Notes under the pieces: generated by a model | The model's input: only the letters and a program-made list of their open reading frames with translations | Told to the model about the DNA's origin: nothing | Databases searched by the model: none | Sequence record: PP400782 | Length of the DNA stretch: 64,000 nt | Source of the DNA: Escherichia phage FL31 | Direction: 5' to 3' (one strand) | In this document: piece after piece, positions 20,625 to 50,778 of the stretch | Layout: each line of letters begins with the position of its first letter | How positions within the stretch are numbered: the first letter of the stretch is position 1 | Made by a program: the position numbers and the translations under genes

Positions 20625-20678
20625 AATATTCTCTCTTTAACTAATAATCTCCCGGCTGTATCGGAAGGACCTAAAACC

Positions 20679-20703
20679 ATTATACATAGGTCGCCTTGAA
20701 GCA
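20679..20703 (-). promoter_or_regulatory. MotA-dependent middle promoter for uvsY
   Basis: Minus strand reads TGCTTCA (MotA box), 12-nt spacer, TATAAT, about 55 nt upstream of the uvsY ATG. Confidence 0.65.
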
Positions 20704-28353: not shown

Positions 28354-28382
28354 AACGTTTTCCTCATGTTGTTGATGGGACA

Positions 28383-28412
28383 ATAGTATCACACATCCAT
28401 GTGTTTGTAAAC
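28383..28412 (-). promoter_or_regulatory. early promoter downstream of alt
   Basis: Minus strand GTTTAC, 18-nt spacer, TGTGA-TACTAT; the -35 overlaps the alt stop. Confidence 0.6.
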
Positions 28413-34883: not shown

Positions 34884-34924
34884 TTTATTCTCCAGATGTT
34901 TAAGTTATTTGTTGGTACAGGACT

Positions 34925-34953
34925 ATAATAACATAACCTGTACCAAAGTAAAC
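34925..34953 (-). promoter_or_regulatory. early promoter
   Basis: Minus strand GTTTAC, 17-nt spacer, TATTAT-AGTC; upstream of the ORF starting at 34883. Confidence 0.55.
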
Positions 34954-34957
34954 ATTT

Positions 34958-38894: not shown

Positions 38895-38920
38895 TTCTAT
38901 TTCCTCATTTTGGTAGAGTC

Positions 38921-38950
38921 ATCATATCACAACTCTACGGTGTTGTAAAC
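38921..38950 (-). promoter_or_regulatory. early promoter for the cd.x-DAHP synthase-cd transcription unit
   Basis: Minus strand GTTTAC, 18-nt spacer, TGTGA-TATGAT-GACTC; upstream of the ORF starting at 38894; no promoter found closer to the DAHP synthase gene. Confidence 0.55.
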
Positions 38951-41016: not shown

Positions 41017-41044
41017 CTAGATTTCCTCAATTATCCATAGGAGC

Positions 41045-41074
41045 ATTATACTCTGCTCCCGAGAGTTTGTAAAC
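41045..41074 (-). promoter_or_regulatory. early promoter
   Basis: Minus strand GTTTAC, 18-nt spacer, TATAAT; upstream of the ORF starting at 41016. Confidence 0.55.
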
Positions 41075-42482: not shown

Positions 42483-43616
<1,134 letters not shown>

Positions 43617-43632
43617 TCAGTTAGTTTTTTAA

Positions 43633-43662
43633 ATTGTACCACAATCCTTGTGGTATGTAAAC
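43633..43662 (-). promoter_or_regulatory. early promoter for rnlA
   Basis: Minus strand GTTTAC, 18-nt spacer, TGTGG-TACAAT; the -35 overlaps the denA stop. Confidence 0.6.
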
Positions 43663-45574: not shown

Positions 45575-45582
45575 TATTTATA
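45575..45582 (-). promoter_or_regulatory. late promoter inside the nrdB intron driving the homing endonuclease ORF
   Basis: Minus-strand TATAAATA 28 nt upstream of the endonuclease start. Confidence 0.55.
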
Positions 45583-46368: not shown

Positions 46369-46406
46369 TATATTTCTCACTTAGTTATTAACTCATCCAT
46401 GAGTAA

Positions 46407-46430
46407 ATTATAATCAAAAGTCTTAAAGCT
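46407..46430 (-). promoter_or_regulatory. candidate middle promoter for nrdB
   Basis: Minus strand reads AGCTTTA, 11-nt spacer, TATAAT, overlapping the nrdA stop region. Confidence 0.3.
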
Positions 46431-48705
46431 TACAAGCAGAACAATCTTCAGCTTTAGGTGTTTCTAATTCATAGTCATCTGTACCTGACCCATCACGGGT
46501 GTTATGATAGTAGAGGTTTTTTCCGCCAAAGTACCAGAAGTAAAGCAGATCGTCAAGCATTACTGACATTGGCACTTTACCTTTCTCAAATACTGCAGGG
46601 TCATAGTAAGTATTAGCAGAAGCAGATTGGCACACCCATTTCAACATGATAGCAACTTGGGTCAAATAAGGTTTATTACCTTTCTTAGCAAGTTTCCACG
46701 CGTAGTCGTAAAGACTCATGTTATGTTCTATATTAGGAACAACCTGTCGGAAGTTGCCTTCTTTAGATTCTTTAATACTTACTGGACCACGTGGGGGCTC
46801 AATCCCGTTTGTAGAGTTCGATACTTGACTGCTTGACTCACAAGGCATGAGTGCAGACAACGTTGAGTTACGAATTCCATGTTCTTTGAGTTCAGCTCGA
46901 AGTTCTTCCCAGTCACAGACATAGTTCGGGGCTGCGATTTGGTCAATCTTTTTATTGTACCAGTCGATAGGTAATTCGCCTCTAGACCATTTAGTGTCTG
47001 AATAATACTCACAAGGTCCTTTTTCTTTGGCGAGTTTGATTGATGCTTTGATAAGGCCATATTGCAATCTCTCGAACAATTCATGGGTCAAATCGTTAGC
47101 GTCTTCATATGAAGCAAAGTTAGAAGCTAACCATGCAGCATAGTTCGTCACACCAACACCAAGATTACGACGCTTTTTAGCTTTTAAAGCTTCTGGAACC
47201 GGATAATCTTGATAGTCTAACAGGTTATCAAGTGCACGTACTTGTACTTCAGCAAGTTCATTAATTTTATCTTGGTCTTGCCAATCAAATTTATCTAATA
47301 CAAAAGCAGATAATGTGCATAAACCAATTTCAGCATCAGGACCATTCACATCATTAGTTGGAATAGCGATTTCACAACATAAGTTACTCTGACGAATTGG
47401 AGCTTTTTCACGAATAAACGGAGTGTAGTTATTCGTGTTATCAACAAACTGTGGATAAATTCGAGCAGTGCCAGAACGTTCAGTCATGAACAATTCAAAG
47501 AGTTCTAGTGCTTTGATTCTTTTCTTTCTGATTGTTGGGTCTTTTTCAGCTTTCTCATAAAGCTCACGGAATTTATCTTGATCTTCAAAGAACGAGTAGT
47601 ATAGTTCGCCTGACATTTCGTGAGGGCTAAATAAAGTAATATAATCATTTTTACCAAGGCGTTCCATCATAAGGTCATTAATCTGAATTCCGTAGTCCAT
47701 ATGTCGAATACGGTTTTCATCCACGCCTTTGTTATTTTTCAGAACTAATAGGTTCTCTACTTCTAAGTGCCACATCGGATAATACGCTGTAGCAGCACCA
47801 CCACGAATACCGCCTTGAGAACAAGATTTTACTGCAGTTTGGAAATGTTTCCAGAATGGAATAACACCTGTATGTCGAACTTCACCCATACCGATCTTAG
47901 AACCTTCTGCACGAAGCATACCAACGTTGATACCAATACCAGCTCGTTTAGAAATATATTCAATAATTGATGCTGAAGTTTTGTTAATAGATTTTAACGA
48001 ATCACCGGCTTCAATAACTACACAACTAGAGAACTGGCGAGTCGGAGTACGAGCACCTGCCATAATTGGAGTTGGCAATGAAACTTGATGAGTAGAAACG
48101 GCATCATAAAAACGAATAATATGTTTCAAACGGTCATGAGTTTCGTCTTGGTGTAAGGCCATACCAATAGCCATGATAGCAAACTGCGGAGTTTCATAAA
48201 TCTTACCAGTTGTTTTATCTTTAACCAGGTATTTTTCTTTAAGCTGCATAGCACCAGCATAAGTCAGGTCAAAGTCTCGTTCATGTTTAATCTGTGAATC
48301 GAGATAAATGATTTCTTCTGCTGAATATTGAGACAACAGCTCAGGGTCATATTTGCCTTCATTAACACAGTAAGAAATATGGTCGATAAAAGCAGGTGGT
48401 TCAAACTGCTCATATACATCTTTACGAAGTGCAAACATTAGACCTTTGGCGGCGACATACTGATAATCAGGTTCTTCGACAGAAATCGAGTTAGCTGCAA
48501 CTTTAATACAAATCTTCTGAATATCTTTGGTGCTCATCCCATCAACCAGATGAGTCTTAATTTCTTCATACAATTCGTATGGGTCAATTTGTGTTCCTTC
48601 ACATTGCCAAGTTAAGACTTGAATAATTTTCTGTGCATCAAAATTTTGTGATACACCACTGCTCTTAGTTACTTGCATATATTCCTCGGATAGATTGATA
48701 GACAT
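46423..48705 (-). CDS. nrdA: ribonucleotide reductase large subunit NrdA
   Basis: 760 aa; active site SNLCCEIAIPT; C-terminal redox pair CSACKL; long collinear match to recalled E. coli NrdA. Confidence 0.95.
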   Translation of the reverse strand: MSINLSEEYMQVTKSSGVSQNFDAQKIIQVLTWQCEGTQIDPYELYEEIKTHLVDGMSTKDIQKICIKVAANSISVEEPDYQYVAAKGLMFALRKDVYEQFEPPAFIDHISYCVNEGKYDPELLSQYSAEEIIYLDSQIKHERDFDLTYAGAMQLKEKYLVKDKTTGKIYETPQFAIMAIGMALHQDETHDRLKHIIRFYDAVSTHQVSLPTPIMAGARTPTRQFSSCVVIEAGDSLKSINKTSASIIEYISKRAGIGINVGMLRAEGSKIGMGEVRHTGVIPFWKHFQTAVKSCSQGGIRGGAATAYYPMWHLEVENLLVLKNNKGVDENRIRHMDYGIQINDLMMERLGKNDYITLFSPHEMSGELYYSFFEDQDKFRELYEKAEKDPTIRKKRIKALELFELFMTERSGTARIYPQFVDNTNNYTPFIREKAPIRQSNLCCEIAIPTNDVNGPDAEIGLCTLSAFVLDKFDWQDQDKINELAEVQVRALDNLLDYQDYPVPEALKAKKRRNLGVGVTNYAAWLASNFASYEDANDLTHELFERLQYGLIKASIKLAKEKGPCEYYSDTKWSRGELPIDWYNKKIDQIAAPNYVCDWEELRAELKEHGIRNSTLSALMPCESSSQVSNSTNGIEPPRGPVSIKESKEGNFRQVVPNIEHNMSLYDYAWKLAKKGNKPYLTQVAIMLKWVCQSASANTYYDPAVFEKGKVPMSVMLDDLLYFWYFGGKNLYYHNTRDGSGTDDYELETPKAEDCSACKL

Positions 48706-48712
48706 TACTCCA

Positions 48713-48735
48713 AACGGGATAGTATTTATCCCGTT
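48713..48735 (-). other. stable hairpin in the nrdA 5' leader, abutting the SD
   Basis: Perfect 9-bp stem AACGGGAUA/UAUCCCGUU with a 5-nt loop, ending 3 nt before GGAG and 11 nt before the AUG. Confidence 0.5.
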
Positions 48736-48740
48736 AATTT

Positions 48741-48764
48741 ATTATACACTTTTAAACTGAAGCG
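48741..48764 (-). promoter_or_regulatory. candidate middle promoter for nrdA
   Basis: Minus strand reads CGCTTCA (one mismatch to the MotA box), 11-nt spacer, TATAAT. Confidence 0.3.
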
Positions 48765-49019
48765 TTAATTATTCTTAGCAATAATTTCTTTGTATTCTTT
48801 AGGAGTCAAGACCGTAATATCGAAATAAACCAATGGTTCTTTTTCCATACCGTAACCACCACAAAATTCGCGATATTCATAAATTCGTTCGTGTGAATGG
48901 CAAATGAATCGTTCACCTTTAACTGTGATTTCACTATTTGGTGAAGGGATATCCAGTTCACTTGGATTTTTCATTTCAAAAATTGTGGTGCCATATGAAT
49001 TAATAAAACGTAAAATCAT
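48765..49019 (-). CDS. hypothetical protein (84 aa) between td and nrdA
   Basis: ATG start 2 nt downstream of the td stop. Confidence 0.45.
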   Translation of the reverse strand: MILRFINSYGTTIFEMKNPSELDIPSPNSEITVKGERFICHSHERIYEYREFCGGYGMEKEPLVYFDITVLTPKEYKEIIAKNN

Positions 49020-50716: not shown

Positions 50717-50778
50717 TTTATTCTCCTTCACTTTTGATTTGATAGGGCTACTATAACATAACCCTATCTGATTATACA

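Follow-up and report, generated by a model that had tools for sequence, protein, structure and literature searches.

The gap between nrdA.2 and nrdA carries a compact, single-copy cassette in which a middle-type promoter is followed, 6 nt after its -10 element, by a stable 9-bp hairpin. The hairpin is most likely an ordinary transcript-boundary element of known kinds rather than a translational switch. We lean, with modest conviction, towards a dual-role stem-loop, active at the RNA level on the sense strand, that would close the RNA arriving from td and nrdA.2 and cap the nrdA message starting beside it. Both the promoter and a terminator were predicted earlier, computationally, in the supplementary listings for RB69 (Nolan et al. 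2006, PMC1524935).

On sequence grounds the window (the whole 64,000-nt stretch that was analysed) comes from an RB69-like T4-type phage of the genus Mosigvirus. Its minus strand reads frd (50465-49878), td (49881-49021), nrdA.2 (49019-48765), nrdA and nrdB; the stop codon of nrdA.2 (TAA, 48767-48765) overlaps the start of the promoter cassette, and the hairpin lies inside a 59-nt gap between open reading frames. A 701-nt query around the hairpin matched 154 phage records, RB69 among them, at 90 to 99% identity; relatives with the same arrangement are called type A. The features of the locus are:

48765..49019, minus strand: nrdA.2 (Pfam DUF5496, E = 6e-14), named from the RB69 annotation
48741..48768, minus strand: promoter part of the cassette, with Mot-box-like TAACGCTTCA, an 11-nt spacer and the -10 element TATAAT
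48734..48735, minus strand: predicted transcription start, A48735 or A48734, from the -10 spacing and analogy with T4 PnrdA
48713..48735, minus strand: hairpin, RNA AACGGGAUA/UAUCCCGUU with loop AAUAC and a perfect 9-bp stem
48703..48711, minus strand: GGAG (48711-48708), UA and upstream AUG (48705-48703), invariant in type-A relatives
48688..48702, minus strand: hypervariable spacer forming the body of a mini-ORF; roughly every second alignment column here is variable, compared with 1 of 65 for the cassette
48683..48687, minus strand: nrdA Shine-Dalgarno sequence GAGGA, 4 nt ahead of AUG 48678
46423..48678, minus strand: nrdA coding sequence from the conserved start, 751 aa plus stop, equal in length to the annotated RB69 nrdA (2256 nt)

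On the minus strand the upstream part runs ...AATAAT TAA CGCTTCAGTTTAAAAGTG TATAAT AAATT AACGGGATA AATAC TATCCCGTT, and the stem is followed by T GGAG TA ATG TCT ATC AAT CTA TCC GAGGA ATAT ATG CAA GTA ACT AAG. The perfect 9-bp stem that a sequence-only reading had reported in the nrdA leader is present: AACGGGATA (48735-48727) pairs with TATCCCGTT (48721-48713) around the loop AATAC (48726-48722). Folded alone, the hairpin reaches -11.2 kcal/mol (z = -3.45, with none of 200 shuffled sequences as stable), with only three G-C pairs, and it is kept in both the minimum free energy and the centroid structures of longer contexts. Stem length by itself is not rare in 64 kb: counting perfect hairpins with stems of 9 bp or more, the window has seven distinct ones where Markov simulations give about 2.5, and the rest are mostly AAAGGG...CCCTTT terminators of the classic kind. 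The hairpin/promoter cassette has no second copy in the window at up to three mismatches, is unrelated in sequence to the window's other cassettes, and occurs at one place per phage record.

Several known element types were considered and rejected. No Rfam family was found in the whole window at gathering thresholds, and around the hairpin there was only noise at E values up to 10. NrdR boxes have the 16-bp consensus acaCwAtATaTwGtgt, and none lies near the locus within three mismatches. A late promoter within the hairpin (GATAAATA, from the 5' arm and loop) lacks its first T, and none of the RB69 late promoters, as far as these are listed in the source, falls in the 1432xx range. As a strong site for the RegB endoribonuclease (consensus GG*AGRAYARAA; PMC3014915), GGAGUAAUGUC fits two of the seven downstream positions.

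The hairpin had been described as ending 3 nt before a GGAG taken to be the nrdA Shine-Dalgarno sequence. The actual gap is 1 nt, and that GGAG is not the one that serves nrdA. Alignment places the conserved NrdA start at AUG 48678 (MQVTK...), where the RB69 annotation and the homologues from T4, Dhakavirus and S16-like phages coincide, and GAGGA precedes the shared MQ(V/L) start in T4, RB69, Dhakavirus and S16-like phages (NrdA begins MQLINVIKSSG in T4 and MQVQKSSG in Dhakaviruses). The longest open reading frame opens at AUG 48705, 2 nt past GGAG, from which the protein would begin MSINLSEEYMQVTK... if this codon were used. By the same alignment AUG 48705 is not the conserved start, and its 2-nt spacing argues against efficient initiation; no other long ORF in the window truly shares it (spacings are typically 4 to 8 nt, and in the sole other apparent 2-nt case there is also an ATG with a spacing of 5 nt). 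The nrdA call based on the longest ORF (760 aa from AUG 48705) is thus probably nine codons too long, which matters mainly for annotation. It was this mis-called start that made the hairpin look like a regulator adjacent to the ribosome-binding site; because 25 nt separate it from the true Shine-Dalgarno sequence, it does not abut that site.

The reassigned start bears directly on translation control, either through hindrance of the 30S subunit at GGAG/AUG 48705 or through coupling of mini-ORF termination to reinitiation at nrdA. Such control finds some encouragement in GGAGUAAUG, which is invariant in 12 of 12 type-A sequences, and in the fact that, in every variant, initiation at the upstream AUG would bring ribosomes to the region where nrdA starts. 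Yet the stem ends at 48713 and contains no Shine-Dalgarno sequence and no AUG, the upstream GGAG/AUG and the nrdA pair all lying outside it. Folding of the leader, which had been proposed as a check, left the nrdA Shine-Dalgarno sequence unpaired whether the 5' arm was present or absent, and gave no alternative fold that sequesters it. The spacing at AUG 48705 also speaks against the idea, as do SSE1-type phages, in which GGAG/AUG is replaced while the hairpin is kept.

Nor is the mini-ORF itself conserved. In RB69 it reads ATG TCT ATC AAC CTA TAC TGA (MSINLY*, six codons), with a UGA that overlaps the nrdA Shine-Dalgarno sequence. Across 12 type-A sequences its frame, length and sequence vary; it is a separate 6-codon ORF in most, and nine have the UGA at the nrdA Shine-Dalgarno sequence. 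A 1-nt deletion in the window joins it in frame to nrdA, adding nine codons; NHEP11 has a 2-nt insertion that likewise fuses the two in frame, and in ESh27 it has 13 codons and overlaps nrdA, extending beyond the nrdA AUG. The spacer of 15 to 30 nt is a hotspot of substitutions and 1- to 2-nt indels in phages that are otherwise 95 to 97% identical (loci L001, L031 and L033-L037), and the window's own spacer length occurs in no full-length BLAST row among the matches listed. As the true Shine-Dalgarno sequence and AUG are 25 nt downstream and predicted to be unpaired, and the upstream AUG is out of frame in most relatives, control of nrdA translation initiation by the hairpin, the first role suggested for it, is very unlikely.

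The candidate MotA-type promoter reported just upstream held up well. The Mot box retains GCTT (48763-48760) and the site as a whole reads TAA-CGCTTCA, 11 nt, TATAAT (48746-48741), which fits the middle-promoter consensus of a Mot box (a/t)(a/t)(a/t)TGCTTtA, 11 to 13 nt and TAnnnT. This is the consensus given for T4 and RB69, and RB69 encodes motA and asiA, according to PMC1524935. The same site can be read as sigma-70-like (TTAACG-16-TATAAT, a 10/12 match). The whole stem lies past the -10 element. In T4 the mapped start of PnrdA is 142726, with the last T of its -10 at position -6; this geometry puts +1 at A48735, while the classical -7 spacing puts it at A48734. The predicted +1 therefore falls on the first or second stem base, with 0 to 1 nucleotides unpaired and a stem of 8 to 9 bp, and we infer that the hairpin would also be 5'-terminal in the middle transcript. 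A literature search on transcript mapping in RB69 or Mosigvirus found nothing relevant.

Middle promoters here do not in general place a hairpin at +1. RNA folded from the predicted +1 gives -11.3 kcal/mol at this locus versus 0 to -7.6 kcal/mol at about 13 other good Mot-box sites in the window, and since those sites lack a stable +1 hairpin the feature is locus-specific.

The RB69 listings contain this very sequence (Nolan et al. 2006, Virol J 3:30, Additional files 4 and 6), as computational predictions in a supplement. The predicted middle promoter Pm:143278 (143239-143278) has a score of 17.4, which ranks 12th highest among 32 sites under the authors' HMM, and spans the Mot box, the -10 element and the first three bases of the stem. 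The TransTerm terminator 'nrdA<--nrdA.2' (143221-143239, 7 bp, confidence 100) corresponds, when mapped through locus L001, to the inner 7 bp of the stem and the loop. From the nrdA.2 stop codon to the upstream ATG the cassette is identical in the window and RB69. In the available parts of Nolan et al. 2006, no discussion of the promoter/terminator overlap, the mini-ORF or the alternative modules was found.

In the dual role, read-through RNA from frd, td and nrdA.2 would fold the hairpin 30 nt beyond the nrdA.2 stop codon. Because the hairpin is followed by UUU only, intrinsic termination or attenuation there would be weak, and the structure left at the 3' end would slow 3' exonucleases. In transcripts from the MotA-type promoter the same hairpin would form the extreme 5' end of the nrdA(-nrdB) middle mRNA. 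Stable 5'-terminal structure in E. coli hinders 5'-end-dependent decay by RppH and RNase E, and a terminal stem-loop here would be expected to do the same. The hairpin would act in both settings without gating nrdA translation by occlusion of the ribosome-binding site. If this is correct, a single stem-loop ends one transcript at its 3' side and caps the following one at its 5' side, a neat addition to the designs known from T4-type phages. The hairpin's structure and position, its conservation, the start-codon assignment and the earlier listings are observed, while the start site, termination and stabilisation are deduced.

For the terminator half, a stable stem-loop (-11.2 kcal/mol) does stand on the coding strand 30 nt past TAA. 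There is no U-rich tract: the tail is UUUGGAGU after the 7-bp core and UGGAGUAA after the 9-bp stem, with three U, and a simple consensus terminator scan did not call the hairpin on the minus (sense) strand. With a d'Aubenton-type formula, implemented for this analysis with ViennaRNA energies so that scores are approximate, the hairpin scored -26, the T4 mobE terminator -27 and the window's canonical terminators +4 to +8. As the score resembles that of the verified T4 mobE terminator, a partial attenuator or 3'-end hairpin for td-nrdA.2 RNA is plausible. Counting against the dual role, a terminator placed after its own promoter would attenuate that promoter's transcripts too; a still poorer U content in the tail of relatives with an endonuclease gene (described below) counts against the terminator role, and Moha-type relatives that lack the cassette count against the dual role as a whole.

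A rival reading is a pure 5'-terminal stabiliser, in which the hairpin would shield the MotA-dependent nrdA transcript from RppH/RNase E decay and have no terminator activity. The predicted +1 on the first stem base with 0 to 1 unpaired nucleotides, a U-tract too short for a good terminator and the retention of the hairpin where the downstream tail loses U all suit this reading. It is nevertheless rather unlikely, since the start site is a prediction, the window's other predicted middle promoters have no 5' hairpins, and the analogues in other genera are terminator-like or so placed that their own transcripts would lack the hairpin. A 5'-cap role thus has no class-level support, as the other Mot-box sites of the window lack a +1 hairpin. 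Within the dual role, protection of the nrdA mRNA 5' end, the second option of the sequence-only reading, may still plausibly operate on the modelled start and fold.

Conservation is strongest exactly over the cassette. Together with GGAGUAAUG it has 1 variable site in 65 nt among 12 type-A sequences, these 65 nt running from the stop codon through GGAGTAATG, whereas about 12% of positions vary in flanking coding DNA and about 50% in the next 27 to 30 columns. So few variable sites have a probability of about 0.002 by a binomial estimate, and across 14 Mosigvirus sequences the promoter part is invariant and the cassette as a whole nearly so. The lone stem variant, in metagenomic contig L038, is an A to G change that turns A-U into G-U on the sense RNA and into C-A on the antisense RNA. 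Distant BLAST, an IMG/VR scan and a metagenome pattern scan gave no diverged copies of the cassette, only this single G-U variant.

This pattern also bears on the view that the hairpin does nothing for nrdA expression, being either an inverted repeat that arose by chance or a terminator for the plus (antisense) strand. Two to three perfect 9-bp hairpins are expected in 64 kb, and the plus-strand version does fit the simple terminator pattern, with the tail AATTTATTAT. But a single variable site in 65 nt beside a hypervariable spacer is hard to reconcile with chance, the neighbouring genes are all on the minus strand, and the L038 variant pairs only in the sense RNA. The plus-strand terminator was rejected on these last two grounds, and the view overall is highly improbable.

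Three alternative modules were found at the nrdA.2-nrdA junction within Mosigvirus. Type A, the cassette, is present in about 115 of the 154 records, or some three quarters of RB69-like phages. Type B, with no match to the cassette, accounts for about 27 (roughly a sixth); in moha, the one type-B record that was read, the junction carries nrdA.1 (DUF4326) with a T4-type internal promoter and no cassette. In type C (about 12 records, for example SSE1 and AV109) the cassette is followed by a homing endonuclease gene:

L030 887-1522: endonuclease gene of Shigella phage SSE1, between hairpin and nrdA
L032 988-1623: the corresponding gene of phage AV109, between hairpin and nrdA

The type-C endonuclease (211 aa, with an I-TevI DNA-binding domain and NUMOD3) starts 24 nt past the hairpin. 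Homology to the window ends exactly at the last base of the stem, and the tail after the hairpin is GAUACUAC, with even fewer U. In SSE1 the N-terminus of NrdA is MYNFKVVKNSG versus MQVTKSSG, a change that looks like co-conversion or a change of target site. In AV109 td is also split, with its own endonuclease gene. The junction modules form a small, tractable case of module swapping beside an essential nucleotide-metabolism gene.

Type C raises the question of a DNA-level or mobile-element feature, in which the cassette would mark a recombination boundary or be a regulatory remnant of a free-standing homing endonuclease gene that cycles in and out, with the hairpin throttling endonuclease expression and the hypervariable spacer as a scar or a selected target site. 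The position of the endonuclease gene in SSE1 and AV109, the end of homology at the last stem base, the altered NrdA N-terminus in type C and the presence of three modules at one junction speak for it. Moreover, PeSL cassettes have been proposed as recombination sites (PMC2839356), and the T4 mobE terminator has been interpreted as an endonuclease brake (PMC2790892). Against this, the cassette occurs once in the window, its sequence is not related to that of the other cassettes, and most cassette phages have no endonuclease gene there. The reading is quite improbable, and it would sit alongside the RNA roles more than replace them. A more specific form, in which the invariant promoter-hairpin-GGAGUAAUG unit and its spacer would be a landing pad, the footprint of a homing endonuclease repeatedly entering and leaving, is improbable too. 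There the hairpin could brake the endonuclease, and the spacer, under diversifying selection, could be the site that the enzyme cuts or the scar that its gene left on excision; the longer NrdA N-terminus in the window would be one by-product.

The cassette resembles PeSLs, the promoter-early stem-loop composite cassettes of T4-type phages (Arbiol et al. 2010, PMC2839356; Comeau et al. 2014, PMC4122927), whose stem-loop is proposed to stop transcription arriving from upstream, as was demonstrated in one case (PMC2839356). Like them it runs through a stop codon, an AT-rich gap, a promoter, a stem-loop, a Shine-Dalgarno sequence and a start codon; in placing the stem-loop just past the -10 element it matches one PeSL subclass. 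It also adjoins insertions, deletions and replacements between close relatives. It differs in having a Mot-box (middle) promoter and not the GTTTAC early type, and membership of a repeated PeSL family by sequence was rejected because it is single copy and unrelated to the others. If the dual role is true, it extends the PeSL idea to a MotA-type promoter.

Many minus-strand gaps elsewhere in the window are PeSL-like, at 28354-28411, 34884-34957, 38895-38950, 41017-41073, 43608-43661, 50717-50778 and 20625-20703. Most have a GTTTAC/TTTACA -35 element and an inverted repeat that brackets or precedes the -10, with GAGGA ahead of the start codon; the promoter's own transcript would, in the majority, begin within the 3' arm and hence lack the hairpin. 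In contrast to most of these cassettes, where the repeat brackets the -10, nrdA transcripts should contain the whole stem.

A functional parallel is the internal terminator of T4 mobE, a 9-bp hairpin with a short poly(U) for which 30 to 50% termination was measured (Wilson and Edgell 2009, PMC2790892). It shares with the nrdA hairpin the nrd neighbourhood, a 9-bp stem, a 4- to 5-nt loop, three U and a similar score, and it has a partner middle promoter by which nrd expression is restored downstream, much as the nrdA hairpin is promoter-paired. However, the mobE terminator lies inside coding sequence with the promoter downstream of it, and its stem is GC-richer (-16 versus -11 kcal/mol).

A second comparison concerns leader hairpins. 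Those of T4 e, soc and I-TevI are reported to sequester the ribosome-binding site (McPheeters et al. 1986; Gott et al. 1988). Shared features are a leader hairpin near a promoter, a T4-type gene and, in relatives, homing endonuclease genes at the locus; unlike those hairpins, the nrdA stem includes no Shine-Dalgarno sequence or AUG, and no late promoter is predicted inside it. For the 5'-cap half of the dual role there is a likeness to ompA. The E. coli ompA 5' UTR hairpin is said, from work by Emory, Bouvet and Belasco in 1992, to be a 5'-terminal stabilising stem-loop. The nrdA hairpin would likewise be a stable structure with at most one unpaired nucleotide at the predicted 5' end of the mRNA.

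Comparison with the T4 nrdA leader, another check that had been proposed, is impossible because T4 has no intergenic leader; nrdA.1 overlaps the nrdA start and contains PnrdA. Other T4-type genera do have hairpins before nrdA, unrelated to the cassette hairpin and some of them with U-rich tails. In S16-like phages it is GGCAGCC-UUCG-GGCUGCC-AUUUUAG, and in one Dhakavirus group GGGGUCAUG...CAUGACCCC-AUUUUAU. The other Dhakavirus group (loci L006 and L009) has GGUUCUAUGAUA...UUGUAGAACC with a candidate -10 in the loop, some 45 to 75 nt upstream of position 1501. Between L006 and L009 this hairpin shows a two-sided A-U to U-A swap and a U-A to U-G change, which suggests that the structure itself is maintained. 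A stem-loop at the boundary from td or nrdA.x to nrdA is thus recurrent, and it is often terminator-like.

It had also been suggested that NrdA expression must be matched to NrdB made from a spliced transcript. The split nrdB is real (46368-44099, minus strand): exon 1 (46368-45694) corresponds to RB69 NrdB residues 1-223 and exon 2 is 44599-44099. The proposed tuning is weakened, because about a sixth of Mosigviruses have no cassette and RB69 has the hairpin but an intronless, uninterrupted reference nrdB. The insertion (45693-44600, about 1.1 kb) holds a 269-aa HNH ORF (45547-44738) that looks like full-length I-TevIII, and a Mot-box/-10 site ending at 45582 lies ahead of this ORF; Rfam gave no group I intron in the insertion at gathering threshold. 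Just past nrdB (44072-43662, minus strand) an ORF of 136 aa encodes a GIY-YIG catalytic domain; it is probably a free-standing homing endonuclease gene, either seg-like or truncated.

Two further hairpin-like sequences were noted in the window. On the plus strand at 1522-1553, the stable stem-loop ACCGGCC-GAAA-GGCCGGT stands 2 nt ahead of AGGAG and a double ATGATG start, without a U-tract, where two late genes meet that are annotated in relatives as tail sheath stabilizer and neck protein. In the nrdA-nrdB gap (46369-46422, minus strand), the Mot-box/-10 site GCTTTAAGACTTTTGATTATAAT, which is Pm:140943 in the RB69 listing, is directly followed by the palindrome ACTCATGGATGAGT; at about 0 kcal/mol this is too weak for an RNA hairpin, and its placement echoes the nrdA cassette.
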